DNA from: a virus
Lineage: Duplodnaviria; Heunggongvirae; Uroviricota; Caudoviricetes
Virus record (IMG/VR): IMGVR_UViG_2778261453_000019
DNA length: 19,266 nt
Reading direction: 5' to 3' (one strand)
Part shown: piece after piece, positions 1,226-19,266 of the stretch
Layout of the letters: the number at the start of each line of letters is the position of its first letter
How positions within the stretch are numbered: the first letter of the stretch is position 1
Notes under the pieces: model-generated
Told to the model about the DNA's origin: nothing
Database searches by the model: none
Seen by the model: the letters and a program-made list of their open reading frames with translations, nothing else
Position numbers and translations under genes: made by a program

Positions 1226-2017
1226 TTATGGTTCGATCGCCGTTTTGAGCCGTTGTGTTGCTACATCAAAATAATGATCACTGGTTTCTATACCAATAAA
1301 TTTGCGTCCTGCTTTCAGTGCAGCCACACCCGTTGTCCCTGACCCCATAAAAGGATCAAGGACTGTTCCGCCACTATTCACAGTCCTGACCAGTTCCGCC
1401 ATTAGTTCTTCTGGTTTTCCGGTCGGGTGCATTTTCTTTGACGGGATAACCGGGAACGTCATGCAGCCGTCGAACGGTCCCGAAGGCGATTTATCTAAAT
1501 GGCCTTTGCTGCCCCAGACGATGTATTCGCACTGATGCCGGAAATACCCGGTATGTGGTGTTCGTGACCCCCTCCCTTTGTTCCACGCAATAATGCCGCG
1601 CCATGTAAAGCCACTGGCCTGAAACGCATCGGTTAAAGCTGGTAGTTGTCGCCAGTCAGTAAATACCAGGGCATAACCGCCCGGCCTGACTGCGCGGTGT
1701 GCCTGTGCCATCCATAATTGTGTCCAGTAAGCCCACGAACGGGCGTCCATGTTTTCACCCGCGAACCCATCAAAGCGGTGAAGGTTCTCGCCGTTCAGAT
1801 ATTTTGCATGGCTGCCCTGGTTGATGCGTCCGGCCTTGTGTGTCGCCCCCGAACTGTAAGGCGGGTCAGTGATTAAGGCATCAATGCTTTCTGGCTCAAT
1901 CAGCGGCAATATTTCCAGCGCATTCCCACGACAGAGCATGGCATTGTCAGTCTGATAAACCTTAGTGTGTTCCGGTGTATGTGCTGGTTGGTGCTGGATT
2001 GCGATCCCCACGGTCAT
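1226..2017 (-). CDS. DNA methyltransferase, beta-class (motif IV DPPY N-terminal, motif I DPFMGSGTTG C-terminal); probably N6-adenine specific, orphan (no cognate endonuclease in window)
   Basis: 263-aa ORF containing DPPY at residues ~51-54 and FMGSGTTG near the C-terminus; motif order IV before I defines beta group; true start could be the internal ATG at 1939 (MLCRGN...). Confidence 0.85.
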   Translation of the reverse strand: MTVGIAIQHQPAHTPEHTKVYQTDNAMLCRGNALEILPLIEPESIDALITDPPYSSGATHKAGRINQGSHAKYLNGENLHRFDGFAGENMDARSWAYWTQLWMAQAHRAVRPGGYALVFTDWRQLPALTDAFQASGFTWRGIIAWNKGRGSRTPHTGYFRHQCEYIVWGSKGHLDKSPSGPFDGCMTFPVIPSKKMHPTGKPEELMAELVRTVNSGGTVLDPFMGSGTTGVAALKAGRKFIGIETSDHYFDVATQRLKTAIEP

Positions 2018-2159
2018 AACTCCTCATGTGTGTGGGGTGCTCGATGGCTCTCGTTATCTGGTTAAGTGTTTTGCAGCGCGGACATTTTATTTCAATGTAG
2101 TGAAATGAGGCGCGGGCAAGTAGTTTGTTGCAATTTTTGCATCGTACATTTTGCGTCAT
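1962..2159 (-). CDS. com: Com-like zinc-finger translational regulator (phage Mu Com family)
   Basis: 65 aa from the ATG at 2159 (AGAGG SD 7 nt upstream); CKNCNKLL...IEIKCPRCK closely matches recalled Mu Com (CKNCNKLL...IEIRCPRCK); 3' end overlaps the methyltransferase start by 56 nt as com overlaps mom in Mu. Confidence 0.75.
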   Translation of the reverse strand: MTQNVRCKNCNKLLARASFHYIEIKCPRCKTLNQITRAIEHPTHMRSYDRGDRNPAPTSTYTGTH

Positions 2160-2204
2160 TTGCGGCACCTCTTGTGTGGTTACTGCTGCCGATATGATAA
2201 CAAA

Positions 2205-3071: not shown

Positions 3072-4142
3072 CTATCTATAGTCTTCCCATGAGTTTTCAT
3101 CGACACAAAATTCAATACCAGCATCCAGTCCATTTATGTGCAAATTAAACTCATCATTGATAAACTGGCCTTCGTCTATTTCAAAGAATAATTCTAGTTC
3201 TACTGTAAAATCCTTTTCCTCCTCCTCGTGATTAGATACGGTGTCAAAGGTATAAAATTTTCCATCCTCTTTGTCATAATAGCCGTTTGCGGTATCAGGT
3301 CCGCTGGCAGTGACATTAAAACTAACAGTAACATCAAAAGTAATTTGACAACTTTCGTCATCCAAATGAATTATTTTGGGTTCGAATTCGCTTATGTTCG
3401 TAATTTCAAAGCTATCAATCTCTGAGTCTTCCCATGTTGAAGAATTATAAGCTTCAGCAGTTTCTAATTCTTCCGTTAATTTTTGTATGATTTCTTCATT
3501 TTTGCTTTCTAAAAAACGTTCTATAAATCCAGTTCTTTCGTCATTGTGTTTGTTGTAATCATCTAGTAGTAAGTTTAGTGCTCCTATAATTATGAAATTA
3601 TCATTGTCTTCACAGTAACCTTTTAGGTCAGGGTCTTCTGAAACCACATAAATTTTTTCATTATCTCCTAGCGCGGAACGTATTGCTAAAAGAGTGAAGG
3701 CGTCTCGAAATTCGTTAGGTTTTTTCGCACTAAAGGGGCTTTTTTTATCAAAGTACATGTCTATAACCTCATTGAGGTCCACCTTCGACATATCTACAAT
3801 AGTTGTGTTTGAGTCCTCCATGAAACCATTAAATGCGCTTAATGCCTTTTCTTGAATGTCTGTTTCATTAATTTCACAAAATAGATTTTTAATATTGTCA
3901 TCTTCATATTCTTTGAGGATAACAGCCTTTCGTCGGAAATTGTTAATCCCTTTCAATGCTTCTTGTATATGCTCTATGATTTTTCGTTCAACTTCTTTAA
4001 CTACAATTGTTGTAGAAATATGCCTGAACTCATCATTTCTACATAGTTCTTCAAATGATTTTATAGTTTTTGAGTTGAAGTCCAGGTTTGCTTTTACAAA
4101 AAACTCAGTATCAATGAATACATTGCGGGTAACTAGAGACAT
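3072..4142 (-). CDS. AT-rich cargo protein of unknown function (356 aa); N-terminal domain with PIN-like acidic-residue pattern (tentative), highly acidic C-terminal domain; candidate defence/exclusion moron
   Basis: Long ORF with strong SD (AAAGGAG 8 nt upstream of ATG at 4142); visibly AT-rich versus flanking phage genes; inserted between D and ogr, which are adjacent in P2. Confidence 0.85.
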   Translation of the reverse strand: MSLVTRNVFIDTEFFVKANLDFNSKTIKSFEELCRNDEFRHISTTIVVKEVERKIIEHIQEALKGINNFRRKAVILKEYEDDNIKNLFCEINETDIQEKALSAFNGFMEDSNTTIVDMSKVDLNEVIDMYFDKKSPFSAKKPNEFRDAFTLLAIRSALGDNEKIYVVSEDPDLKGYCEDNDNFIIIGALNLLLDDYNKHNDERTGFIERFLESKNEEIIQKLTEELETAEAYNSSTWEDSEIDSFEITNISEFEPKIIHLDDESCQITFDVTVSFNVTASGPDTANGYYDKEDGKFYTFDTVSNHEEEEKDFTVELELFFEIDEGQFINDEFNLHINGLDAGIEFCVDENSWEDYR

Positions 4143-4314: not shown

Positions 4315-5415
4315 TCACTCTGTTTCCGCTATCCATTCCGGGATTTTTGCCTCAAGTTCAAGCTGCGTGGTAAAGCCGCTGTTATCAATGGTGTGCTCGG
4401 CTTTTGCAATAATCCAGTCCTGATTATCAATCTCGCTTTTAAATCCTGTTACCGTGCCATGCATTTCGGGGTAGAGTTCTGCACGACCACGTGCCAGCGT
4501 GATGGAGAATGATGCGGCTCCGCGTTGTAGCTGCTGCCACTTTGCCGCCGCTGCGCGTCTTGCTGCCTGTTCGTTCTGATAAGTCTTGCGTAACACAAAC
4601 ACGTTGCCTTCCGCACCTTCCATATAGTCACCTTCACGGCTGCTGCTTTTCTCCTTTTTCGGTTTGCGGCGTTTCACGCTGACTTTTTTCTTTTTCCCGT
4701 AATTAAGATCAAGCCAGTAAGCGCGTACCCCCGTATACGCTTCGCGGTCAGCAATGCGGAACTGATGGCGATCGCCACTGCTGCGCGTGATGGCGAACGA
4801 GGGCAACGGCTGGCCCTGTGCGTTCACGCCACCGCCTGGCATGATGAATAACAGATTACCGCTTTTTACCGTGGTGATTGCGCCCAGCATTTCCGCCATG
4901 CGCGTAAGGAAGGACATGTCGCTTTCTTCGGTCTGGTCGGCGTGGTCGATTTCAATATCCATCAGCATTTCGCTGATTTGTGGTTTCAGACCGTACCGAT
5001 GAGCGATGGCGGATACCACGCGCTCAACGGTCACATCATGCCAGGACACCTCACGTTTAACGTTAAATTCATCCCGAAAATCTGCGCTTCTGGCTGAAAC
5101 AGTCAGCCTGTCCGGCGGTCCTTCGTGAGCGATTTCATCAACAATGTAAGTGCCTTTTTCTGTCAGCGGTTCTCCTTTCCAGCCAATGAGAACCGTCAGG
5201 CGCGCGCCCCGTGGCGGTAGCTGCAACTGACCATCCGCATCATCCAGCGTGATGGTGAGCTGGTCCGCTTCAAATCCCCGGTTGTCGGTCAGTGACAGAC
5301 TCATCAGGCGCTCTGCCACGCCGGACAGCGTTTCCCCCTCCGCGAGAATATCAAAATCCGGCATTTTCACGGGGTCTGTGCTCTGTCTGAGCAATTGCAT
5401 GGTGGTGTCGGTCAT
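4315..5415 (-). CDS. D: P2 gpD-like tail protein (late control gene D)
   Basis: Family recognised from translation; start set at internal ATG 5415 (MTDTTMQ...) preceded by GGGAGGG SD rather than ORF-track start 5436. Confidence 0.85.
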   Translation of the reverse strand: MTDTTMQLLRQSTDPVKMPDFDILAEGETLSGVAERLMSLSLTDNRGFEADQLTITLDDADGQLQLPPRGARLTVLIGWKGEPLTEKGTYIVDEIAHEGPPDRLTVSARSADFRDEFNVKREVSWHDVTVERVVSAIAHRYGLKPQISEMLMDIEIDHADQTEESDMSFLTRMAEMLGAITTVKSGNLLFIMPGGGVNAQGQPLPSFAITRSSGDRHQFRIADREAYTGVRAYWLDLNYGKKKKVSVKRRKPKKEKSSSREGDYMEGAEGNVFVLRKTYQNEQAARRAAAAKWQQLQRGAASFSITLARGRAELYPEMHGTVTGFKSEIDNQDWIIAKAEHTIDNSGFTTQLELEAKIPEWIAETE

Positions 5416-5571
5416 CTTTCCCTCCCTGTGCGGCATGGTCGCATGTGCGTGCGGAGTGGGTTACTGCTTTTTGTTGTCGCCGTGGCGGGAGAACGGCGCA
5501 GGGGTGAGATTACGCGCGTGGTGGGTGATGATTGTTGCCGAATCATTTAACGGATACAAGGGGCTGAAGCT

Positions 5572-6756
5572 ATGAGTGAAACTCGTTTTCATGGTGCCCG
5601 TGTCACGGAAAGTACCGACCTGGTAACAGCGATTAATGATGTTGATTCCAGCGTTATCGGTATCGTGGCAACGGCGGATGATGCGGATGCGGAGCTGTTC
5701 CCGCTGAACAAGCCCACACTGCTGACCCGCGTCAATGACGTGCTGGGAAAATGCGGGACTACGGGGACGCTTTATCGTGCGCTTAAGGCTATCGCAGACC
5801 AGGTGAGCACAAAAGTGATCGTCGTTCGCGTGGCTGAACACAAAGAAGAAGACGGTAGGACGCAGGATCAACTGGTTATCGGTGGTTCTGAATCTGACGG
5901 CAGCTATACGGGGATGTATGCGCTGCTTGTTGCAGAGCAGGATGAAAGCATCGGATACCGTCCGCGTATTCTGGCCGCGCCGGAGCTGGACACGGAGGCG
6001 GTGACAAAATCCCTGTGCGTGATTGCGGGTAAACTGCGCGCGTTTGTGTATGCCTCATGTCATGACTGTAACACGATGGCTGAGGCAATTACCTACCGCC
6101 AGAAATTCAACGAACGTGAGGTGATGCTCTTATGGCCGGACTTCATCGCCTACAACCCGAAAAGTGGCAAAAACGAAACGTTCCCCGCGCCTGCCTATGC
6201 GTGCGGCCTTCGTGCGTACATTGACCATGAGCAGGGCTGGCACAAATCGCTGTCCAACGTTCCGGTTAAAAATGTGCTGGGGATGTCCAGGCATGTGTTC
6301 TGGTCGTTGCAGGCCGAAGACAGTGATGCCAACAGCCTCAACAACAAAGAAATCACGACCATTATTCGTCGCAACGGGTTCCGCTTCTGGGGCAACCGCA
6401 CACCGGAAACGAACGCCTACATCTTTGAGGTGTATACCCGAACCGCACAGGTGCTGGCTGATTCAATTGCGGAAGCGCAGTTTGAAACCATCGACAGTCC
6501 ACTGACGCCTGCGAACGTGAAAGATGTTATCAGTGCCATCAGGGCAAAACTGGATTCACTGGTTACTGCCGGGAAACTGATTGGGGCGTCGTGCTGGTAT
6601 GACGTGGTGGATAACGGCACCACGAATTTACGTCAGGGGCGCGTGCGTATTCGCTACAAATATACGCCTGTTCCCCCGCTGGAAGACATGGAGCTTTACC
6701 AGTCGTTTACTGATGAATTCTTTGGTCCCGCATTTGCGGTGCTGGGAGGTGCCTGA
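5572..6756 (+). CDS. FI: Contractile tail sheath protein (P2 gpFI-like)
   Basis: 394 aa (P2 FI ~396 aa); sequence family recognised; followed by tube gene with TGATG overlap. Confidence 0.9.
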   Translation: MSETRFHGARVTESTDLVTAINDVDSSVIGIVATADDADAELFPLNKPTLLTRVNDVLGKCGTTGTLYRALKAIADQVSTKVIVVRVAEHKEEDGRTQDQLVIGGSESDGSYTGMYALLVAEQDESIGYRPRILAAPELDTEAVTKSLCVIAGKLRAFVYASCHDCNTMAEAITYRQKFNEREVMLLWPDFIAYNPKSGKNETFPAPAYACGLRAYIDHEQGWHKSLSNVPVKNVLGMSRHVFWSLQAEDSDANSLNNKEITTIIRRNGFRFWGNRTPETNAYIFEVYTRTAQVLADSIAEAQFETIDSPLTPANVKDVISAIRAKLDSLVTAGKLIGASCWYDVVDNGTTNLRQGRVRIRYKYTPVPPLEDMELYQSFTDEFFGPAFAVLGGA

Positions 6757-7268
6757 TGGCTGTACCAAAACATCTTCGCTTTTTTACGCTGTTTGTGGAT
6801 GGTGAAAACGAAGTGGGTAAGGTGACGTCCGTCACTCTGCCTAAGCTGACGCGCAAAACCGACAGCTACCGGGGTGGTGGCATGATGGGTGCGGTAAGTA
6901 TTGATCTCGGTCTGGACGACTCCGCGCTTGATGCGAGCTTTGTCATGGGGGGCGCAGTTCGTGAGCTGTTCCTTAAGTATGGCGGCACGATTGACGGCAC
7001 GCTGCTGCGTTTTGCGGGTGAATACTACACCGATGCAGAAAGCGACTTGTATGAAGTCGAAATGCGCGGACGTGTGACGGAAATTGATATGGGGGAAGCC
7101 AAACAGGGCGAAGCCACATCACACACTTACGCCATTAAAAACACCTACTACAAGCTGAGCGTTAACGATCGCCCGTTGTGGGAGATTGACCTGCTGAACT
7201 TCATTTACCGGAAGGACGGCAAGGACATTGTGCCCGATCGCATCCGTTCCGCGCTTGGGCTTGGCTGA
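6756..7268 (+). CDS. FII: Tail tube protein (P2 gpFII-like)
   Basis: 170 aa, position after sheath gene; family recognised. Confidence 0.9.
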   Translation: MAVPKHLRFFTLFVDGENEVGKVTSVTLPKLTRKTDSYRGGGMMGAVSIDLGLDDSALDASFVMGGAVRELFLKYGGTIDGTLLRFAGEYYTDAESDLYEVEMRGRVTEIDMGEAKQGEATSHTYAIKNTYYKLSVNDRPLWEIDLLNFIYRKDGKDIVPDRIRSALGLG

Positions 7269-7322
7269 TAAGTAATATGCAGGCGGCGCAGTGCGTCGCC
7301 TCTGACTGAAAGGAGTTTCCTG

Positions 7323-7688
7323 ATGAAAGAGACGAAAAACATCGATACCGAAAACACGGTAGTTACTGACACTGTGAAAGAAACCAGTGAGCGTGGCGTA
7401 AAACTTACCCAACCAATTGAGCGAGGCGGCGAAAAAATCACGTATGTGGAGATCACCGGGGCTATTGAGCAGGCTGGATCTCTGCGAGATTTGTCGCTGT
7501 CTGATGTGCTGAATCTGAAAGCGGAATCCATGTTTACGCTGCTGTCACGCGTGACATCACCGCGACTGGATGAAGTGACGATCAAAAAAATGGCATCCCG
7601 TGACTTTATTCAGTTATGTGTGGTTGCCGTAAATTTTTTGAGCGGTGCGGACTCTGGCGGGAAGAACGAACAGGCGACGGAAGCCTGA
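7323..7688 (+). CDS. E: Tail assembly chaperone (P2 gpE-like), zero-frame product
   Basis: 121-aa ORF between tube and tape-measure genes with AAAGGAG SD; contains slippery TTTTTTG. Confidence 0.8.
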   Translation: MKETKNIDTENTVVTDTVKETSERGVKLTQPIERGGEKITYVEITGAIEQAGSLRDLSLSDVLNLKAESMFTLLSRVTSPRLDEVTIKKMASRDFIQLCVVAVNFLSGADSGGKNEQATEA

Positions 7689-7852
7689 TCACGGTTGTGT
7701 GCTTTGAGTACATAGAAGACTTTGTGGCGGATATTGCCGCCATTTTTAACTGGTCGCCCGCCGAAATCTTCATGATGACGCCCGGCGAAGTGGTTAGCTG
7801 GCGTGAGCGGGCGGCACTTCGCAGCGGGAATGCAGACAATGAAGACTCTTGA
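7323..7852 (+). CDS. Tail assembly chaperone E+E' fusion made by programmed -1 ribosomal frameshift at T TTT TTG (7634-7640)
   Basis: The -1 frame ORF (7616..7852) overlaps the E 3' end and is entered exactly at the TTTTTTG heptamer; conserved E/E' (lambda G/GT-like) architecture. Confidence 0.7.
7634..7640 (+). promoter_or_regulatory. Slippery heptamer TTTTTTG for -1 programmed frameshift
   Basis: Read directly; matches canonical P2 E/E' slippery sequence. Confidence 0.7.
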
Positions 7853-9266
7853 TATCCGGGTCGCTTTCAGCGCCGTTGACAGGCTGACCCGGCCTGCCGA
7901 AAACGCCCGCCGCCTGATGGGGCAGTTTGGTGACTCCATCCAGCGAACGCAGGGGGCGATCAAAAATCTCGAGCGTCAGGCGCGATCATTTGAGCGCGCC
8001 CGCGACGCTGTCAGTAAAGCGGATGCGGGCATCGTGAAAGCACGACGCCAGCTTAACGCCCTTAATCAGTTACAACGCACGGGTACAGTGCTCAGCGAAA
8101 AACAACAAAAGCTGATGCGGCAGTTAAGCACCCGGCTTGAACGCCTGAATGAATCGCGCACACGGGAAATTCAGAAAATGCGGGAGCTTGGCGGAGAGCT
8201 GAAACGCCACGGCATTTCCCTGACAGGCAGCGATAACACCATCCAGCAGGCCATCAGACGCACCGAACAGTACAACAACCAGCTTGAACGCGAACGGCAG
8301 GCGCTTGCGCGTGTAACGCGGGCGCGTGAGCGGTATTCGCGCGTGCAGGAAACCGCGGGAAAACTGAAAACAGGTGGTGCGCTGGCAATTGGTGCGGCAG
8401 CGGCTGGCGGCTATGCTGCCGGGCGTTTTTTGCAGCCTGCGATCGGGTTCGGGAAAGAGATGTCCCGCGTTCAGGCGCTGACGCGAATCGACAAAAACAG
8501 CCCGCAGTTTAAGGCGCTGCGTGAGCAGGCGTTAAAACTTGGCTCTGAAACGCAGTTCACCGCAGGCGATGCCGCCAGTGGGCAGGCATTTCTTGCAATG
8601 GCTGGCTTCACACCACAGACCATTCAGGCTGCGCTCCCTGGCGTACTGAGCATGGCAACGGCTGGCAGTATGGACCTCGGTGAGACGGCGGATATTGGCT
8701 CAAATATTCTGACGCAGTTCGGTCTTTCTGCTGACCAGATGGACCGGGTCGGCGACACACTCACCGCAGCGTTTACCCGTACCAACACTGACCTTCGCGC
8801 ACTGGGTGAAACCATGAAATATGCAGGTCCGGTGGCGGGTAAGCTGGTTGATGAGACGAAAAAACGTATTGGCCCCGGCGATATTGTCTTTAAGAACCTG
8901 CCCCGCGCACTTGCCGTTCGTGGGGAGTGGCAGGAGCGGAAGATTGCGCAGGTCAGTAAGCCTGCTTCCGCAATCAACATCACACCCGTGGTCCCGACTC
9001 CTCTGCCTCCGGCGCTGGTCCCTGTTGTTGCGGCCAGCTCCCGCCCGGTGGCGGAGGCCATACGATCGCCAGTGGCATCAGTTCCTGCAACTTCCCGTAA
9101 CCGGGAGCCTGTTGTCTCCGGATTTGGCGGTGAAATTCATGTTCATCTGCATAACGTTGTTACGCAGAATCCCCGCGAACTGGCGAAACTGGTCGGTGAA
9201 ATGGTCAGGGCAGAAATGGAACGGCGCGCCCGTGCCGGGCGTGGCAGTTTTTGCGATAAAGATTGA
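7839..9266 (+). CDS. T: Tail tape measure protein (P2 gpT-like), apparently shortened (~475 aa)
   Basis: Coiled-coil-like N-terminal region, Gly/Ala-rich hydrophobic segment, LGETMKYAGPVAG tape-measure core motif; ORF-track start 7803 (GTG), ATG at 7830 or 7839 more likely. Confidence 0.8.
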   Translation: MKTLDIRVAFSAVDRLTRPAENARRLMGQFGDSIQRTQGAIKNLERQARSFERARDAVSKADAGIVKARRQLNALNQLQRTGTVLSEKQQKLMRQLSTRLERLNESRTREIQKMRELGGELKRHGISLTGSDNTIQQAIRRTEQYNNQLERERQALARVTRARERYSRVQETAGKLKTGGALAIGAAAAGGYAAGRFLQPAIGFGKEMSRVQALTRIDKNSPQFKALREQALKLGSETQFTAGDAASGQAFLAMAGFTPQTIQAALPGVLSMATAGSMDLGETADIGSNILTQFGLSADQMDRVGDTLTAAFTRTNTDLRALGETMKYAGPVAGKLVDETKKRIGPGDIVFKNLPRALAVRGEWQERKIAQVSKPASAINITPVVPTPLPPALVPVVAASSRPVAEAIRSPVASVPATSRNREPVVSGFGGEIHVHLHNVVTQNPRELAKLVGEMVRAEMERRARAGRGSFCDKD

Positions 9267-9278
9267 GGAGTCATGGCC

Positions 9279-9767
9279 ATGATGATGATCTACGGCATGT
9301 TTGTTTTTGAGCTGCGCACATTGCCGCATCAGCAGTTACAGCAAAATAAAAGCTGGCGGCATGTGAAAAATGAACGCGTTAACCGTTCAGCAAGCTGGCA
9401 GTATATCGGTGCAGGTGATGACCGCATCGTTCTTTCTGGTGTGCTTTATCCTGAAATTACAGGTGGCGAAGTGTCGCTGTCTCTGCTGACCACGCAGGCG
9501 TATACAGGACGGCCCTGGCCTCTGATTGATGGCGTCGGGCAGATTTACGGCATGTATGTCCTGACCGAAACGAATACGACCCGTTCCGAGTTTGATCGCT
9601 ACGGTAAAGCGAAAAAGATAGAATTTTCACTGACTCTTGAACGCTGTGATGAGGATTTGCGGGAGCGCCTGCAATCCTCATCGTTCAGCGATATGTTGTC
9701 CGGCTTCAAAGATAAGGTGACATCATCCCTTAATAGCGCGGCCAGCTCAGTTAAGGGGCTGCTCTGA
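9279..9767 (+). CDS. U: Tail protein (P2 gpU-like)
   Basis: ~162 aa ORF directly after T; GAGGAG SD placed for ATG at 9279 (ORF track start 9273). Confidence 0.8.
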   Translation: MMMIYGMFVFELRTLPHQQLQQNKSWRHVKNERVNRSASWQYIGAGDDRIVLSGVLYPEITGGEVSLSLLTTQAYTGRPWPLIDGVGQIYGMYVLTETNTTRSEFDRYGKAKKIEFSLTLERCDEDLRERLQSSSFSDMLSGFKDKVTSSLNSAASSVKGLL

Positions 9768-9843
9768 TTTAACGTATGTCGCCAATTTCCTGATGAAGGT
9801 GACTGGCGACTTGCTGTTGTATGTCCTTCTCAGAAAATTGTTT

Positions 9844-9872
9844 TTGAATAACAAATAACAGGATTTTATAAT
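9844..9872 (+). promoter_or_regulatory. Near-consensus sigma70 promoter: TTGAAT (9844-9849) - 17 bp - TATAAT (9867-9872)
   Basis: Hexamers and spacing read directly; ~50 bp upstream of acetyltransferase start. Confidence 0.65.
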
Positions 9873-9923
9873 CTCTTAACCTTATAACATGTGTGGTCTG
9901 AAATAATAATTAAGGAGATTATC

Positions 9924-10496
9924 GTGCTGTCTTACTTAATGGCAATTCACTTTGTTTTATTTGGGAACTCTACTAATTTAAAAAACTTCTGGAAATATGA
10001 AGTAATTCGGCGGAAACGTATGGATATCTGGAGGCTTTTAAGAGAGAAAAAACAGCGTAACCGGAATTTCCTTTTCTGGTGGCGGTTGGCTAACGAAATG
10101 TATATTAATGGTAATAAATTACATAAGAAAGCAGCCAAAAAGTTAAACAGTAAAATAATTAACAAATTTGGTTGTGAAATTGGATTGGGCGCAAATATTG
10201 GAAAAGGGTTAACAATTCCCCATCACACTGGAATTGTTGTTCATTTTGCTGTTGATGCTGGTGAAAATCTGGTGTTACGACAGAATACTACCATTGGACA
10301 GATAGATGGTGACATGCCTGGTTCAAGAGTAAAAATTGGTAGTAACGTTGATATCGGAGCTAATTGTTGCATCATTGGATTATCACGTAAAATTGGGGAT
10401 AATGTAAAAATAGGTGCAATGTCTTTTATAAATAAAGATATACCATCGAACTGCACATATATAACTAAAAAGAGCGGTGCTGTATTGTATAAATAG
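9924..10496 (+). CDS. Hexapeptide-repeat (left-handed beta-helix) acetyltransferase, serine O-acetyltransferase/CysE-like; AT-rich moron
   Basis: Repeating [LIV]-G-x-x-x-x hexapeptides (IGLGANIGKG, VKIGSNVDIGANCCIIG, IGDNVKIGA) and HHTGIVV resembling CysE core; GTG at 9924 preceded by AAGGAG (9912-9917); ORF track start 9891. Confidence 0.8.
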   Translation: MLSYLMAIHFVLFGNSTNLKNFWKYEVIRRKRMDIWRLLREKKQRNRNFLFWWRLANEMYINGNKLHKKAAKKLNSKIINKFGCEIGLGANIGKGLTIPHHTGIVVHFAVDAGENLVLRQNTTIGQIDGDMPGSRVKIGSNVDIGANCCIIGLSRKIGDNVKIGAMSFINKDIPSNCTYITKKSGAVLYK

Positions 10497-10503
10497 AGTA
10501 CAT

Positions 10504-10541
10504 AAAGCCATCGATATTTCTATCGATGGCTTTTTCTTTTT
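10504..10541. terminator. Strong rho-independent, probably bidirectional terminator (AAAGCCATCGATA-TTTC-TATCGATGGCTTT then TTTTCTTTTT)
   Basis: Perfect 13-bp stem, 4-nt loop, T-tract on plus strand and A-tract upstream; lies between convergent acetyltransferase and G. Confidence 0.8.
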
Positions 10542-11118
10542 ATTGTGGGGCGACAGGCCACTCAATATCTGCTGCTACTGTTGTATCAACACGATGCAAC
10601 AATACCCGATATGTCTTCCATGCAGCCAGTAACGATGTCTCTTCCTCCGTCGCAATATCTAAATCTATAGCATCCTGAAGTGGTGCAATATGCTCACTGG
10701 CTACCTGCATCAGGCTGTTTTTTGTTTCTTCCGCCTCCCTTATCCGAAACAGTTTTTCTGCTTCTGCATCTTTCACCCAGGATGTGCCGTTCCACTTCTG
10801 ATACTCTCCATACGGCGACAACCAGGTAACATTTTCCGGTAATGGACCGAGTTCAGAAATAAATAACGAGTCCCCTGATGCCACGTCATAAACCGTTTTA
10901 CCCCGATGGTCTTCAACGAGATGCCACGATGCCTCATCACTGTTGAAAACGGCCACGAAGCCAGCCGGAATATCTGGCGGGGCAATATCGGTACTGTTTG
11001 CAGGCAGACCTGTATGAGGTGGAATGTATGCATCACCTTCACCAATAAACTCATTGGTTCCGGTCAGTAGATTATAAATTTTTATGGTCCGTGATTGTTC
11101 ACTCATTCTGAATGTCAT
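10540..11118 (-). CDS. G: Tail fibre assembly chaperone (P2 gpG / Tfa-like)
   Basis: 192 aa immediately downstream of tail fibre gene with overlapping start/stop; family recognised. Confidence 0.8.
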
Positions 11119-13250
11119 TATGCAAGCCTCACAATATAGTTAAATGCGATGTTTTTTACGGTGTTTTCTGCGTTCCCCGTAGCATTAACGGTGATGGTGT
11201 GTCCGTGGGGACCAATAATGACAGAATGGGCATGAGCACCAATGCCGATAGTGTGGTTATGGGCACCGATATATACATTGTGAGCATGCCCTCCTGCGCT
11301 CGACGTGGTACCAGTACCTAACGCAGCGTTATAACCGGCTGATACACCATTCCCCGCGCCAGTGTGACCAACAGGTATATTGTGTGAATGAGCTCCTGCG
11401 CTATTTGTGGTTTTTGTGCCGTAATCAAATGAACTGGTCGTTTTAGTACCGTAATCAAACGACGATGTGGTTTTCGTCCCCAAATCAGTACTGGATGCGC
11501 TGGCGCTGTGGGTGTGCGATTTAATGCCGTCCTGTTCCTGAGACAGTACGGCACGACCACTGGCAGGTTTGCCCTTGATAGTCCAGCCACGCATATCAGG
11601 GATCACGCCTGACGGATAAGCGACTGCAAGTTTCGGGTATGCAGATTTGTCAAAAGTCTGCCCCTGCATCAGGGCATAACCAGACGGAACGGTATCTGAT
11701 GGCCACGGAATCGGTGCACCGACTGGATAAAACTTTTCAGGAGGATGAGCCGAGGTGTAAAGCTGCGCCCACGGCGACCAGTTTGCGTCGGTCGTATCCC
11801 GTCGTGAACGAATAAATGCCGGAGCATGAGCACCGCTTATACCACTCCAGCCGATGAGTAATTCGCCTTCGCCAACGGCTGTCATCCCTTTCAGGTGAAT
11901 GATATTTCCATACGCTGTTGGATATCCGTTGTTATACGCCTCGTATAACTCCAGACCTGTGGCCCCCTGCATATTATCTGTCAGGGCGGTCACCCGACCT
12001 TTTGAAGCCAGATTAACTGACGATACTGCTGTCCCATCTGACGGTAACGCCCCGATCTCTGATGCTGTTGGCTTATTCCTGGAGTTATAGTCCCTTCGCC
12101 AGCCAGGAGCATAAGCATCACCATGATTAATATAAGTAAATTGAGCATTAGGGATGCCTTCACCGCTGGATGTACTCGGTGTGGTAATGCGTATGGTCAT
12201 TGCGCCGCGGGTGCCAATAACTTCCACAACAGCACCTGCAAGACAAATATTTCCGCAACCTGTATCTGTAATGACCTTATTACTTGCATAAGCCCATGAG
12301 CCTTTGCACATCCAGTAAGGATGGTTAAATGCCCCCTGACTCTCTAGCCAAAAAATCAACTGCGCAGTTGTCCATGCTTCACTATCTCCACCAATATTCA
12401 GCTCTGCACTATATGCACGGCAGGCACCGATATTTTTCGTAAAGGTGTCTTTGTCAGAGATATCCTCACCATTCTTAGCTTTCTGCAGACGTTTTTCAGC
12501 ATTGTCATAGGCAGCTTTTACTGCATTTGATGTTGCCGCCAGCGTTTCAGACGTGCTGTTGGTTGCACTGCTGAGCTGGACTATCCCTTTTTGTGCCGTA
12601 GTGGCGTCCTGAGCGGTATATTTTCCGTTAGCCATGTCATACGCTGCCTTAACCGCTTTCGGCGTTGCAGCCAGCGTTTCAGAATCGCTGTTAGTGGCGC
12701 TACTGAGTTGAACAAAGCCTTTTGCGGTCAGCGAGGCGTCCGGGTGACGTCGTGACTGTTCATGTTCTTTCAGTTTGTCATTCACGTAATCCACTGTGGC
12801 CATAACCATGGTGTTATCCACGGTAAGCGCCACGGTGGCAGTGCTGGATACGGTCAGAATGGTGCGAAATGTTTGTGCACGTCCGGATCCTTCGGCAACG
12901 GTTGGCTTGTAACTTTCGGCAGTATTGCCCACCGCGATCAAATCGCCGTGCTCATCAAATACACCAATTTCCCGGATCCAGAATCCGCCCGTTTCAGGAG
13001 GAATAACCAGCTCCGCAATAATGCGGTTCTGATGTGTTGCGTCCAGGATGACGCGATTAACAGTATGTCGCCACACCTCATGCACCAGACGGGTCTGCTT
13101 ACTGTCTGGTGTGGGCAACGTGCCGCCACCGTCGCCCACGGCCATGTGAGTCAGGCGGACAGGATTACCATCTGGCGCGGCTGCCTGAGCTAATTTTTTG
13201 GCACCAGTATCAGTGATAATGGTTTTAAATTTTCGTGTTGTGGTACTCAT
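11118..13250 (-). CDS. H: Tail fibre protein (P2 gpH-like) with C-terminal His-x-His-rich tip domain
   Basis: 710 aa; N-terminal region typical of P2 H; C-terminus carries HSH/HAH/HNH/HAH/HGH motifs and a 10-aa tandem repeat. Confidence 0.9.
11401..11486 (-). repeat. Three imperfect 30-bp tandem repeats inside the tail fibre gene, encoding [10 protein letters not shown] / [10 protein letters not shown] / [10 protein letters not shown]
   Basis: Verified by translating the minus strand in the H frame. Confidence 0.8.
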
Positions 13251-15604: not shown

Positions 15605-16245
15605 CGTACAGCCTCCGCAATCCGGCCCAGCACCGTGTTATAAATCAGGCGTTCATCTGCCTGACTGATGCCCAACAGCTCACGTACCGGGTAATCGGTG
15701 AAAATGCCCGGCGCAACCTGATCGCGCTCACCGAACTGATGAACGCGGGCAATACGTGCGGCCACGCCGCTGTAACCCACCGTCACACCGGAAGCATCTG
15801 CACGGGCTTTCAGGTAGCGGGCGGTGCGCAGTTTTACGAACATGGGGACGCGCTTTGTGCTGTCCTGGTTGATGCGCCGGGTGCGTATTTCCAGAAAACG
15901 GTCGATGTCATCCCGGTAAAACGTGCGGATATTGTTTTTATCCTCATCCCACCCGGTAATGGTTCGCCCGTATTTCCCCGTGTCGTGATGCCAGTTTTTC
16001 AGCGTGCGTGCTTCGTTATTCCAGATAAAGCGAATGCGTTCCTGTATCCGGGTTACGCGGCGTCTGCGTGGTGTCCATGCGGTCCCGTCCGGCGCTTTCT
16101 GTGACCGGATGCGCGCCTGCTGGGCGCGGCGTAAATCCTGTGCCAGCTTTCTGGCGATGTTATTGATGGCCTGCTGATTCAGGCTGTCGCGGATGGCCTC
16201 AAAGGTTTCATCCACGCGGGTGAATGCCTTATCCATCGCTTTCAC
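15601..16245 (-). CDS. Tail completion / virion morphogenesis protein (P2 gpS-like position)
   Basis: 214 aa between R and V; assignment by synteny and general resemblance. Confidence 0.65.
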   Translation of the reverse strand: MKAMDKAFTRVDETFEAIRDSLNQQAINNIARKLAQDLRRAQQARIRSQKAPDGTAWTPRRRRVTRIQERIRFIWNNEARTLKNWHHDTGKYGRTITGWDEDKNNIRTFYRDDIDRFLEIRTRRINQDSTKRVPMFVKLRTARYLKARADASGVTVGYSGVAARIARVHQFGERDQVAPGIFTDYPVRELLGISQADERLIYNTVLGRIAEAVR

Positions 16246-16696
16246 CCCACGTCACATCCTGGAATACATGCGACCAGCCGCCTTCGGAAGATGGCAGGCG
16301 GGGTTTTGGCTCCGGCAGGTGTTCTGCCTGCGGTGTGCCCTGACTGCTGCGCGTGATGCGAACGCGTTCCCGCAGGGGGAGCGTAAACAGGAGATCGGCG
16401 CTGTCATCGTCATTGATAACGGCGGAAAATTTGATGTCCTGATTACGCTCAGGGTTGAGCAACAACTGTGGCTGATTTTCGGATAACCACGCCAGCAGCG
16501 GCAGCGTGAGGTCGTCCAGCTCCCCGGCGTAATCCATGACAAACATCACCATCTGATAGCGGTAAACAAACGATGGGGTTTCTCCGGTCGTTTCAATGTT
16601 GCCGCTCTCCACGAAAATGGTGAATTTTTCCGGGTTGGCCTGACACCATCGGCATGAACGGGTCATGGCTTCACGCAGGGAATCAGTTTTCAGCAT
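16229..16696 (-). CDS. Tail completion protein (P2 gpR-like)
   Basis: 155 aa (P2 R ~155 aa), synteny after lysis genes. Confidence 0.7.
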   Translation of the reverse strand: MLKTDSLREAMTRSCRWCQANPEKFTIFVESGNIETTGETPSFVYRYQMVMFVMDYAGELDDLTLPLLAWLSENQPQLLLNPERNQDIKFSAVINDDDSADLLFTLPLRERVRITRSSQGTPQAEHLPEPKPRLPSSEGGWSHVFQDVTWGESDG

Positions 16697-16973
16697 GGTT
16701 GTTGTCCTCGTTGTTCAGTCGTTGCAGCCTGCGCTGTTCCAGTAATTCAATGGCCCGTTTATCCGCGTTACAGGTTTCCAGTGCATCCAGAAGGCGGTCG
16801 CCCCATATACCGAGATTTCCCCATGTGGGAGGGTCAGGGAAGGGGGGCGGCGTTACCGGAATGGTCAGCGTCTGCGGTATAAGCCGGACTGACGGCGCTG
16901 GCCGTGGCGCGTTCTGCGTGCCTGCGCAACCTGTCAGTAAAACGAGCGTCAGGCAAAGCGTGGGCGCATTCAT
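16683..16973 (-). CDS. Outer-membrane spanin lipoprotein (LysC/Rz1-like), partly embedded in LysB in another frame
   Basis: MNAPTLCLTLVLLTGC lipobox signal, Pro-rich mature region; overlaps the LysB 3' end. Confidence 0.65.
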   Translation of the reverse strand: MNAPTLCLTLVLLTGCAGTQNAPRPAPSVRLIPQTLTIPVTPPPFPDPPTWGNLGIWGDRLLDALETCNADKRAIELLEQRRLQRLNNEDNNHAEN

Positions 16974-17241
16974 CTTTTGCAATATCGTTGCGTAGCTGTT
17001 CACGTCTGGCCTCTCCGTCCTGATTTCGCTGTTGATTTTCCACGCGGAGTTGCGCCAGCACCTGCTGCATATCCTGTACCCCGGCACTGATGATATTCAG
17101 TGTGTCGACGGTACTTTTCAGGGTGCTGGCCTGTGCTTCGTTTCTGGCGTTCTCCCGGCCAAGCGACCATGACAGACGCATGGATGTTCCCCATGCGGCA
17201 ATCAGAAGGAAAGCGACACCCAGCGTGGGCCAGAGCTTCAT
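16834..17241 (-). CDS. Inner-membrane spanin (LysB/Rz-like)
   Basis: Start at ATG 17241 (MKLWPTLGVAFLLIAAWG... N-terminal TM helix) just after endolysin stop; coiled-coil-like remainder. Confidence 0.7.
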   Translation of the reverse strand: MKLWPTLGVAFLLIAAWGTSMRLSWSLGRENARNEAQASTLKSTVDTLNIISAGVQDMQQVLAQLRVENQQRNQDGEARREQLRNDIAKDECAHALPDARFTDRLRRHAERATASAVSPAYTADADHSGNAAPLP

Positions 17242-17630
17242 GCCGGATAGGCTCCGTGTGGTAACTGAAAATGTGGTCCGTCTTTCAGGGTCTTCCAGTC
17301 GCCGCCCCATTCCACCGGAATATTCAGTTCCCGGCTGGCCTGTCTGAATGCTGCTGCGATTTTTTCGTACAGCGGCCATTCCCATGACACCTGGCTGCCG
17401 ATATAAGCCACAACATCCACGGCATGTCCCGTAAGGTGGCGGCTGTTCATGGTCTGGCTCTTACCTGTGGCCACAAGTTGCTTCTGGCGGTAACGGCTGC
17501 GCAACCCTTCGGTGATACCAAAATCCACTTCCGAAATTTCCAGTGCCCGTCGGGTCACTTTCACCAGATCAGGATTTACGCCCTGCAAATTCTTTTCGCT
17601 CCGGCTGCTGAATTTAAATGTGTTGCTCAT
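17238..17630 (-). CDS. Endolysin, peptidase M15-type (L-alanyl-D-glutamate / D-Ala-D-Ala peptidase family)
   Basis: 130 aa with SRHLTGHAVDV metal-binding-type motif; follows holin with ATGA overlap. Confidence 0.75.
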   Translation of the reverse strand: MSNTFKFSSRSEKNLQGVNPDLVKVTRRALEISEVDFGITEGLRSRYRQKQLVATGKSQTMNSRHLTGHAVDVVAYIGSQVSWEWPLYEKIAAAFRQASRELNIPVEWGGDWKTLKDGPHFQLPHGAYPA

Positions 17631-17950
17631 TCGTCCTTCTCCTTCACCCTGCGATTAAAGGCCGCAATAACCTTGTCGCGTGCTTTCTCTGCACCCATAA
17701 AACCGATTGATGCGCCGATAAACGTCACGGCATCTTCAGGAAACCCGAAGAAGCGCAACGACCCGGCCACGGCCATGGCAAGAACGCCGCACGCCAGCGA
17801 TCCCGTTACGGTCTGAACCAGTGTTCGTCCGTCATAAAGACTCATCAGCGCGGAAATGCTGACCGCCGCGCCTACTGCATACACCGTTGGCAGGTGGTCA
17901 AAGAGCCACGCAATAACCTGCTCTGTGATCCCTGTTTGAATGGTGCTCAC
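17627..17950 (-). CDS. Holin (P2 gpY-like position), GTG start
   Basis: ~107 aa with 2-3 hydrophobic helices and charged C-terminus; GGGGGAG SD before GTG at 17950. Confidence 0.65.
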   Translation of the reverse strand: MSTIQTGITEQVIAWLFDHLPTVYAVGAAVSISALMSLYDGRTLVQTVTGSLACGVLAMAVAGSLRFFGFPEDAVTFIGASIGFMGAEKARDKVIAAFNRRVKEKDE

Positions 17951-17952
17951 TG

Positions 17953-18153
17953 CTACTCCCCCCACAACTGAATCATTTCTCGTTTCTTCTTCTCCGGCTC
18001 CGGCATCTCCACTTCCTGCCCGGCGTCCAGAAATACCTGCTGACAGAGTCCGGGGTTGGCATCCAGCACCTTTTCGGTGACGCCCTGCGTCGTGCCGTAG
18101 TACCGGAAACAGAGCGAATCCACGGTGTCGCCTTCCAGTGCCTTCACTTTCAT
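17953..18153 (-). CDS. X: Tail protein X (P2 gpX-like, LysM-like)
   Basis: 66 aa MKVKALEGDTVDSLCFRYYG...LWGE resembling recalled P2 X (MKTFALQGDTLDAICVRYYG...LWE). Confidence 0.8.
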   Translation of the reverse strand: MKVKALEGDTVDSLCFRYYGTTQGVTEKVLDANPGLCQQVFLDAGQEVEMPEPEKKKREMIQLWGE

Positions 18154-18374
18154 CAGCACAACTCCGCAAAGATTCGCGGGCGACACAGAATGTCAGAGAT
18201 GGCCCAGCTCACATCGCGCCACAAATCCGATGTCTGTATATCCAGTGCGTCCGCCCGGCGGTCGCCCTTGTCCGTTGTGTCCGCATCGCGGTAACGCTCC
18301 AGAATCAGGGCGCGTGTGGCGGTATAAAAGCGCGTGCGTAAGGTATTTGACAAAAAATCGGTAGCGGTGGCCAC
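18153..18374 (-). pseudogene. C-terminal fragment of head completion gene (P2 gpL-like); N-terminus deleted
   Basis: Open frame upstream of X with TGATG overlap as in P2 L/X; overlaps the integrase 5' end, no head genes beyond. Confidence 0.45.
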
Positions 18375-19266
18375 TGAACGCTACATCATGGCGAACGCTG
18401 AAAAGCGGGAATATATACAGGGCTACCGTGATCGTCGAACGCTAAATGATTTGCTTGAGTTGTGGTGGATGTATCACGGCCAGCACAGGCGTAAGGCGGA
18501 AGAAGACCGAAAACAACTGCGCAACATAATCAATGAGCTTGGCGCTGATATGCAGGCTGTGGATCTTGATAAGCTGAAAATTATCGCGTGGCGTTCTCAA
18601 AAGATAGCTGAAGGATTGAAACCGTCATCTGCTAACAGGTACATGAATCGGTTATCCGGAATGTTTACCGTGCTGAAAAAAATAGGTCTTTGGGATGCAG
18701 AACATCCAGTAAGGGGAATTTCTATTCTTTATGTATCTCCACGAGAAATGGCGTTCCTGTCACAGAAGGAAGTGGCGCTATTGCTCGATACACTGGAGGG
18801 CGACTACTGGCGTGTTGCGCTTTTGTGTTTAAGCACAGGGGCGCGCTGGAGTGAAGCTTGTAAGCTTCGTGGTGAACAGATAGTTCATAACCGTGTAACG
18901 TTTCTTGAAACCAAAAATGGCCGGAAGAGAACAGTGCCAATTTCGCAGGCAGTTTGTGAGGCGATCAAAACCAGAGAAACAGGCGGCTTGTTTGAGGTGA
19001 AGTACCGGGAATTCTGCCTGGCGCTGAAAAGAGTTAAGCCCGATTTACCAAAAGGCCAGGCTGCACATGTGCTGCGGCATACGTTCGCCAGCCATTTTGT
19101 GATGAACGGAGGAAACATTATTGCGCTTCAGAAGATTCTTGGTCACGCAACCATTCAGCAAACAATGGCATATGCGCATTTTGCACCGGATTACCTGCAG
19201 GATGCGGTGGCCCTTAATCCGCTGAAAGGTGGCGTAAGTGTCCACGCAGTGTCCACGGGGGATTAA
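18334..19266 (+). CDS. int: P2-type tyrosine integrase, N-terminally truncated (arm-binding region missing); catalytic domain intact
   Basis: 310 aa aligning to recalled P2 Int from RRKFDKKSEAV onward; H-x-x-R box and catalytic Tyr (MAYAHFAP) present; in-frame stop at 18325-18327 just upstream of GTG start. Confidence 0.85.
   Translation: MRKVFDKKSVAVATERYIMANAEKREYIQGYRDRRTLNDLLELWWMYHGQHRRKAEEDRKQLRNIINELGADMQAVDLDKLKIIAWRSQKIAEGLKPSSANRYMNRLSGMFTVLKKIGLWDAEHPVRGISILYVSPREMAFLSQKEVALLLDTLEGDYWRVALLCLSTGARWSEACKLRGEQIVHNRVTFLETKNGRKRTVPISQAVCEAIKTRETGGLFEVKYREFCLALKRVKPDLPKGQAAHVLRHTFASHFVMNGGNIIALQKILGHATIQQTMAYAHFAPDYLQDAVALNPLKGGVSVHAVSTGD

Follow-up and report, generated by a model that had tools for sequence, protein, structure and literature searches.

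The acetyltransferase gene and its cassette

The stretch of DNA analyzed here (19,266 nt, referred to as the window) comes from the Caudoviricetes virus record IMGVR_UViG_2778261453_000019. It corresponds to a piece of Escherichia coli chromosome beside flk that bears a P2-like prophage remnant. We focus on an acetyltransferase gene of this remnant, located at 9924-10496 on the plus strand between the tail gene U and the tail fiber assembly chaperone gene G, and encoding a left-handed beta-helix (LbH) enzyme. The gene product is more likely an acetyltransferase of a cell-surface sugar, probably the lipopolysaccharide (LPS) core, whose gene travels between phages with a tail-fiber tip.

The open reading frame (ORF) starts with GTG and encodes 190 residues. 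NCBI PGAP predicts an identical 573-nt coding sequence in E. coli relatives, and the GTG start is supported by the fact that residues 1-5 are kept in homologs. A Shine-Dalgarno sequence, AAGGAG, is read from the sequence at 9912-9917 (plus strand), 6 nt 5' of the GTG, as announced in a preliminary description of the window, and it is conserved in four related loci (L148, L142, L149 and L144). The same description announced a near-perfect sigma-70 promoter. The motif is indeed present, a TTGAAT-17-TATAAT site at 9844-9872 (plus strand) that matches at 10/12 positions. However, the region contains five promoter-like matches versus 3.8 +/- 1.9 in shuffled sequence, which is no enrichment, and some alleles have not kept the motif. 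The promoter match is thus plausible but not statistically distinctive in such AT-rich DNA. As homology among the acetyltransferase-bearing cassettes begins at 9840-9842, the promoter-like site is part of the mobile unit. In P1-like copies, a different sequence takes the place of the motif upstream of the gene.

An intrinsic terminator is located at 10504-10543 (plus strand), between the convergent acetyltransferase and G genes. It consists of a perfect 13-bp stem (10504-10533) with a 4-nt loop and a T-rich tail, the stem being followed by TTCTTTTTAT. The hairpin folds with an energy of -21.3 kcal/mol (z = -5.2), and 0 of 200 shuffled sequences fold as well, in full agreement with the perfect hairpin initially noticed. 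The composition of the segment is foreign: GC is 0.32-0.38 over 9750-10650 versus 0.50-0.61 upstream (T/U) and 0.45-0.55 downstream (G/H), so that the insert is indeed AT-rich compared with both flanks. Sister prophages share the backbone up to 9772-9822 and again from about 10556; the limits first proposed for the insert, 9826-10541, were accurate to about 15 nt. Between appreciably diverged alleles dN/dS (the ratio of nonsynonymous to synonymous substitution rates) is 0.12-0.26, and this is therefore a real gene under purifying selection. The value of 0.53 between near-identical alleles relies on very few substitutions (dS about 0.01-0.02).

Judged from its sequence, the cassette is a moron, on account of its terminator, its GC contrast, its placement between conserved phage genes and the alternative cargo found in relatives, with the promoter counted by consensus match. 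This layout (promoter-like site, Shine-Dalgarno sequence, gene and terminator, foreign in composition and placed at a swap site flanked by conserved phage genes) had been correctly recognized in the preliminary description. Tandem Repeats Finder detected no tandem repeats indicative of phase variation in 9700-10650, and a scan with Rfam gave no riboswitch or small RNA above threshold in the leader and gene. The sole strong Rfam match, IS009 (RF02111; 182 bits versus a gathering score of 117), lies at 10577-10775 (minus strand), wholly within the G/tfa coding sequence. This "small RNA" family may merely mirror conserved prophage tfa sequence. A weak terminator-like hairpin is also present at 9743-9761, overlapping the end of U. 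In the inverted arrangement of this prophage, late transcripts of the F operon may in part continue into the acetyltransferase gene.

An LbH acetyltransferase that has lost the serine-binding residues

The protein matches Pfam Hexapep with an E-value of 2.3e-5 and 24.3 bits, a little short of the gathering score of 27 bits. It also matches PHROG 2154, a family of unknown function, at 4.9e-87. An AlphaFold2 model built from 50 homologs (pLDDT, the predicted local distance difference test, 95.5) consists of five N-terminal helices followed by an LbH domain. When this model was compared with solved structures using Foldseek, the probability of a match to LbH enzymes was 1.00, and the best hits were serine acetyltransferases, with template modeling (TM) scores of 0.72-0.74 and 20-28% identity. 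By its modeled structure, the protein is a member of the LbH acyltransferase superfamily. It is probably a soluble, trimeric, acetyl-CoA-dependent O-acetyltransferase. The prediction of a hexapeptide-repeat acetyltransferase of about 190 residues with a serine-acetyltransferase-like core is thus confirmed.

The profile search suggested along with that prediction places the enzyme nearest to the NCBIfam models for EpsC, cysE and WcaB. No curated cut-off is reached: 75.3 bits versus 150 for NF041874 (EpsC), 62.8 versus 210.65 for TIGR01172 (cysE), 53-54 versus 195-196 for the models of the colanic acid acetyltransferase WcaB, and 39.2 versus 397 for NF008349. Pfam SATase_N has no match in the 190-residue protein.

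Residue His100 aligns with the DH-motif histidine of Neisseria gonorrhoeae CysE, is equivalent to CysE His158, and is conserved in at least 90% of the family. Glu85 aligns with the aspartate of "VDIHP" (equivalent to Asp143), and this position is acidic. His100 and Glu85 form a putative catalytic pair. The situation is different for the substrate pocket. In N. gonorrhoeae CysE, serine is bound by Asp161, Arg196 and His197 (PMC8786284), whose counterparts in E. coli CysE are Asp157, Arg192 and His193. These three residues are replaced here by Pro99, Ser134 and Arg135, and the corresponding columns are variable across the family. Another residue of CysE, Asp92 in the N-terminal domain, has been assigned to the serine pocket or the catalytic dyad (PMC13040420); the alignment to solved CysE structures begins only at residue 54 of our protein and assigns no counterpart to Asp92. 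At the other extremity, the protein ends about 10 residues past the last beta-helix coil and has no C-terminal tail. In CysE, it is this tail that binds CysK.

From these comparisons the protein would belong to the serine-acetyltransferase/EpsC/WcaB structural branch, with its serine specificity probably lost. Because its scores are far under the CysE cut-offs and the serine-binding residues are replaced, the database name "serine acetyltransferase" is a misnomer. Clear cysE orthology with conserved serine-binding residues, which the preliminary description had set against its own proposal, was not found, and a true CysE is excluded by the same model scores and residues. A xenobiotic acetyltransferase of the Vat/CatB type was also considered and rejected: there were weak partial matches only, and only for a paralog described below.

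The slot between G and U is a swap site

In the P2 record, the interval between G and FI is occupied by fun(Z), which is convergent with G. Three relatives whose genes follow the canonical P2 order (L150, L153 and L154) carry a 65%-identical homolog exactly between G and FI, also convergent with G, and the initial assignment of the insert to the P2 Z/fun locus is therefore well founded. In our window the slot has G and U as its borders, because the block from FI to U is inverted. Its conserved left flank is the tail gene U (9273-9767, plus strand; Pfam Phage_P2_GpU, 5.5e-39), which comes last in the inverted block FI-FII-E-E'-T-U.

In sister prophages whose backbone is near-identical, this slot holds other cargo. 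That of L007 is a GT9 (heptosyltransferase-family) glycosyltransferase that has no sequence match in the PDB and resembles, among phage records, only proteins of Campylobacter phages, at 23% identity. That of L008 is a 38%-identical LbH paralog, and that of L009 a cin-like DNA invertase with an invertible fiber segment. The slot is thus a swap site carrying glycan enzymes. The 38%-identical paralog (5684-6229 in L008, 283-846 in L004) has ISYLNS in place of IPHHTG and is devoid of the conserved catalytic histidine. The paralog may be inactive or rely on a different base.

Coupling to the tail-fiber chaperone and tip

The gene G (Tfa), at 10540-11118 on the minus strand, encodes the tail-fiber assembly chaperone (Pfam Caudo_TAP, 1e-40), which is 92% identical to the Tfa protein of the P1-like phage-plasmid JL22. 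Next to it, the 3' end of the tail-fiber gene H, encoding the C-terminal tip (11118-11731, minus strand), is the remainder of a block common to P1-like phages. Positions 9932-11731 of the window align with 6009-7808 of locus L002 as a contiguous 1800-bp block of 93.5% identity, which extends from the acetyltransferase ORF over the terminator and G/tfa into the terminal ~610 nt of H. The same block is found in the P1-like JL22 and L132. In P1-like phage-plasmids, the acetyltransferase gene occupies the center of a ~5.5-kb cin-invertible segment, between two alternative tip and chaperone sets; positions 3402-8865 of L002 are colinear with L139, with the flanks swapped.

This coupling extends across phage families. 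The neighborhoods of homologs were surveyed at 89 loci, which reduce to 24 clusters at 90% identity. A P2/P1-type tfa or fiber gene is present within 2 kb in 15 of the 24 clusters, mostly convergent and 4-54 bp distant. Four further clusters adjoin other fiber-like genes, and three have too little flank to judge. The H tip itself (11121-11870, minus strand) shares 64% identity with part of T4 gp37. Tips in several Peduoviridae, in Salmonella phages and in phage 9g resemble it at 55-76% identity. As for G/tfa, its DNA is ~89% identical to tfaQ-type genes in ~4500 E. coli genomes.

Distribution of the family

A 778-bp segment with the gene is found in 530 of 5426 complete E. coli genomes (~10%), almost always labeled "serine acetyltransferase | tail fiber assembly protein". 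Databases already include the sequence, misleadingly named, and no function is assigned to its PHROG. The carriers cover the O serogroups O157, O111, O22 and O103. A ~90%-identical protein is encoded on P1-like phage-plasmids of 90-100 kb, for example JL22 and an O111:H- plasmid. More diverged homologs, with 35-70% identity, are present in further P2-like phages, in phages of Hafnia and Citrobacter, and in Enterobacterales, Orbaceae and Pseudomonas. The gene had first been taken for an unusual payload at this position. This view has to be abandoned for a gene present in about a tenth of complete E. coli genomes and recurring beside fiber genes in many phage lineages.

A scan with one genome per species kept 80 loci, about 13 of which (L010-L022) are family-level relatives by identity and match length; the remaining loci are more distant matches or match over the beta-helix core only. 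Several of these ~13 close relatives are orphan singletons, with neighbors such as an autotransporter gene, Usp, msrA, a methyl-accepting chemotaxis protein gene and a sulfate permease gene. On one metagenomic contig (L177, 3892-5591), three LbH-family paralogs of 181, 193 and 196 residues are found in tandem, in an island bounded by oprD-like and isochorismatase genes.

Partner genes

The best clue to the substrate comes from the genes that accompany the homologs, among which LPS-type enzymes recur. In a Morganella-type prophage, the homolog and a GT9 gene form a two-gene cassette adjoining the fiber gene. In a Xenorhabdus prophage, the homolog is paired with a GT25 gene (an LPS biosynthesis glycosyltransferase family in Pfam). 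Two viral contigs have a YibB/HtrL gene (NF008462, 359.8 versus a cut-off of 342) between the homolog and tfa.

The association is also found on chromosomes. Leminorella grimontii has a full-length, 47%-identical homolog within its waa LPS-core cluster, in the order waaB-waaI-waaY-waaZ-homolog-waaL, waaL being on the opposite strand and convergent with the homolog. The products of this cluster are an LPS 1,6-galactosyltransferase, a 3-alpha-galactosyltransferase, WaaY, WaaZ, the homolog and RfaL; the waa genes are above the curated NCBIfam cut-offs except WaaY, which is above its Pfam gathering score. In Halomonas, a homolog is located directly 3' of waaZ (222.9 versus a cut-off of 200). In Pseudomonas, a homolog adjoins a GT2 gene, with a UDP-sugar dehydrogenase gene ~1.5 kb further downstream. 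Another homolog adjoins ugd and arnT-like genes.

Proposed function

We infer from sequence comparisons the substrate of the enzyme, its expression in the lysogen and its effect on phage adsorption, which together would make it a receptor-modifying conversion function similar to that of NeuO. Transcription of the gene in the lysogen would start at its own promoter, with read-through from the U operon as a possible second source in the present arrangement. The enzyme would acetylate a sugar hydroxyl of a conserved envelope glycan while this glycan is on the cytoplasmic face of the inner membrane, before its export. The most likely target would be the LPS core oligosaccharide. The modified surface would change recognition by phage fibers, including those with the adjacent T4-gp37/Stf-type tip, and adsorption of phages with a matching tip would be lowered. 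Lysogenic conversion, superinfection exclusion, or protection of the progeny from adsorbing to cell debris could be the outcome.

Assembly of the LPS core occurs on the cytoplasmic face of the inner membrane. Since the enzymes are soluble and the core is built on that face, O-acetylation of the core is the most economical reading. For envelope glycan editing in general, we consider the chances to be about even. That the LPS core specifically is the acceptor is a narrower claim, to which we would give less than even chances.

Several observations weigh against this proposal. The promoter motif is intact in one diverged lineage (L149) and degraded in L148, L142 and L144. In the sister prophage L007, a tfa and tip 82% identical at the DNA level are paired with the GT9 gene, not with the acetyltransferase gene, and cargo and tip are therefore not strictly matched. 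T4-gp37-like tips can bind OmpC as well as LPS. Many chromosomal homologs are orphan singletons with uninformative neighbors. We know of no report that core of the E. coli types R1-R4 or K-12 is O-acetylated. Finally, the searchable literature contains no functional characterization of the family; the sole mention found is a table entry in which a homolog from Citrobacter phage phiNP is listed as a "fitness" gene, unaccompanied by functional work.

As a tentative generalization, which could well prove too broad, this family of LbH proteins of ~190 residues, alone or with GT9, GT25 or YibB-type enzymes, might constitute a widespread and unrecognized "LPS-core editing" module. It would be welded to a tip and its chaperone and exchanged as one cassette among P2-like phages, P1-like phages and other myoviruses, its place in the P1-like phages being within the invertible host-range segment. 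A phage acquiring such a cassette would inherit receptor binding and receptor editing together.

Alternative explanations

The same chemistry could be directed to another acceptor, such as an O-antigen repeat unit, the enterobacterial common antigen, colanic acid, capsule or a nucleotide-sugar. Exopolysaccharide enzymes indeed provide the nearest curated models (EpsC with 75 bits, WcaB with 54 bits), the Pseudomonas homolog lies in a cluster with GT2 and UDP-sugar dehydrogenase genes, and NeuO is a precedent for acetylation of a capsule. However, every one of these model scores is far under its curated cut-off. The E. coli carriers cover several O serogroups, and a conserved acceptor is therefore favored over one particular O unit. 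Moreover, the informative partners (WaaZ, GT9, GT25 and YibB) are enzymes of the LPS-core or lipooligosaccharide type. We regard such another acceptor as unlikely. Tight and recurrent adjacency to tfa and fiber genes could also be taken to mean that the enzyme acts in the virion, by acetylating the tail fiber, the chaperone or another phage protein during assembly. This would hardly be expected of a gene that is convergent with the late fiber operon and has its own promoter-like site, terminator and foreign GC content. The gene is also absent from sister prophages with related fibers, which have the GT9 gene or the invertase instead, and related homologs are found in chromosomal waa clusters. 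We consider the virion role the least probable of the explanations discussed here.

The preliminary description had left two functions open, modification of a surface polysaccharide precursor and action on a small molecule or nucleotide in defense or counter-defense. The evidence favors surface-glycan modification, and the other possibility has lost ground. An anti-phage defense or counter-defense enzyme acetylating a small molecule, a nucleotide or a protein would fit with the variable loci of P2-like phages that hold defense systems (PMC9122126), with P2 fun(Z), which occupies the homologous slot and blocks phage T5 according to its annotation, and with phage ev040, in which the homolog adjoins an abortive-infection gene. 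Yet no defense-system model of PADLOC-DB 2.0 matched the protein (0 families at E <= 1), the gene stands single, with no sensor or effector partner, and the recurrent partners of its homologs are glycosyltransferases. The P2/P4 survey published in Cell Host Microbe, which took in the gpA-gpQ locus and not the slot adjacent to G, lists no acetyltransferase (PMC9122126). A defense role is improbable in our opinion. More improbable still is a genuine short-form serine O-acetyltransferase, that is, an auxiliary metabolic gene raising O-acetylserine/cysteine supply or signaling. Automatic annotation and the best solved-structure matches both point to serine acetyltransferases, and truncated CysE isoforms do exist (PMC13040420). 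Against this, the scores are 63 bits versus 210.65 (TIGR01172) and 39 versus 397 (NF008349), the three serine-binding residues are replaced, no C-terminal tail follows the beta-helix, and no cys-regulon genes are found near the gene.

Comparison with known systems

The closest parallel to the proposed glycan-editing role is NeuO, the O-acetyltransferase for K1 polysialic acid. NeuO is a cytoplasmic LbH enzyme, and its gene lies beside a tailspike gene. Like the gene described here, it is an accessory acetyltransferase gene borne by a prophage (CUS-3); NeuO modifies a surface glycan used by phages, cuts phage killing and protects against K1 phage (PMC9659370). The two differ in several respects. 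NeuO belongs to another LbH subfamily and is not among the sequence matches of our acetyltransferase to solved structures. It is phase-variable through heptanucleotide repeats, whereas the acetyltransferase gene has no tandem repeats. Its acceptor is a capsule limited to K1 strains, whereas our gene is found across several O serogroups.

CysE (TIGR01172; PDB 1T3D and 6WYE) shares the helical N-terminal domain followed by an LbH domain, as well as the catalytic histidine and its acidic partner. It is longer (~273 residues versus 190 here); full-length CysE has more N-terminal helices than the five modeled here. The residues binding the carboxylate and amine of serine are replaced in our protein, which also differs by the missing C-terminal tail and by a score far under the cut-off. 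The enzymes of the WcaB/EpsC type, the nearest curated models, are likewise short serine-acetyltransferase-like LbH enzymes, involved in polysaccharide assembly; the scores are here 54-75 bits versus cut-offs of 150-196, and the gene is part of a phage tail-fiber module and not of an exopolysaccharide operon.

P2 fun(Z) has the same slot and the same orientation, convergent with G, and is a non-essential cargo changing the sensitivity to other phages. Its product (P2 15675-17261, ~528 residues, no acetyltransferase annotation) appears unrelated by size and annotation. WabB of plasmid pO157 is, like the enzyme proposed here, a horizontally carried cytoplasmic enzyme decorating the LPS core; it differs in being a glycosyltransferase on a virulence plasmid, not an acetyltransferase, with no link to a phage fiber module. 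WabB was reportedly described as an LPS core enzyme encoded by a mobile element by Kaniuk et al. in 2002 (J Biol Chem).

Significance

The gene is more likely a common but uncharacterized sort of lysogenic-conversion gene, lysogenic-conversion enzymes from prophages being a known category. If it acts as proposed, roughly 10% of sequenced E. coli strains, including many Shiga-toxin producers from cattle, would chemically edit a conserved part of their LPS by means of a prophage gene. Phage susceptibility, the host range in phage therapy, recognition by serum and antibodies, and LPS-based typing could all be affected. A systematic mis-annotation would be corrected, that of "serine acetyltransferase" proteins without serine-binding residues. 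The fiber-adjacent Z/fun slot of P2-like and P1-like phages would then be a reservoir of glycan-modifying enzymes, complementing the gpA-gpQ defense hotspot that has already been surveyed.

The prophage remnant

The remainder of the window is organized as follows. The minus strand first carries, in this order, flk (1-996), the gene for an N6/N4 DNA methyltransferase together with that for a Com-family regulator (1226-2168), ogr (2727-2987), a gene for a PIN-domain protein (3072-4142) and D (4315-5436). The genes FI, FII, E/E', T and U (5572-9767) are on the plus strand. Beyond the acetyltransferase gene, G/tfa, H, I, J, W, V, S, R, the lysis genes and the holin gene extend from 10540 to ~18170 on the minus strand, and an integrase gene occupies 18334-19266.

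The FI-FII-E-E'-T-U block (window 4315-9767) is inverted compared with phage P2, with D split off from the block. D (minus) and FI (plus) are divergent over a 135-bp spacer (5437-5571). This inverted FI-U arrangement with a split D is common to all E. coli relatives inspected. The tape-measure gene T (7803-9266) has an in-frame deletion of ~1380 nt compared with every relative examined, with its junction at ~8836/8838, which corresponds to 2184/3566 in L007. The T product would be ~475 residues long versus 935; the tail would be roughly half as long, or T would be defective.

The region 16229-19266 is a tail-plus-lysis remnant in which LysC/LysB, an M15 endolysin, a holin and X come after R. 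Intact relatives are homologous up to ~18331, within the head-completion gene, and the integrase gene then follows. The capsid, terminase and early genes are missing from the remnant, whose layout resembles that of a tailocin.

Between ogr and D, the gene at 3072-4142 (minus strand) encodes a 356-residue protein with a PIN_12 domain. In relatives, this position is occupied by a ParA-family gene (L006) or by IS30/IS3 insertions (L001), and it is therefore a second variable slot. At the flk-proximal end of the prophage, a gene for a zinc-ribbon protein similar to Mu Com precedes the N6/N4 DNA methyltransferase gene (1226-2168, minus strand). In relatives, a Hok/Gef gene is annotated adjoining this methyltransferase gene.

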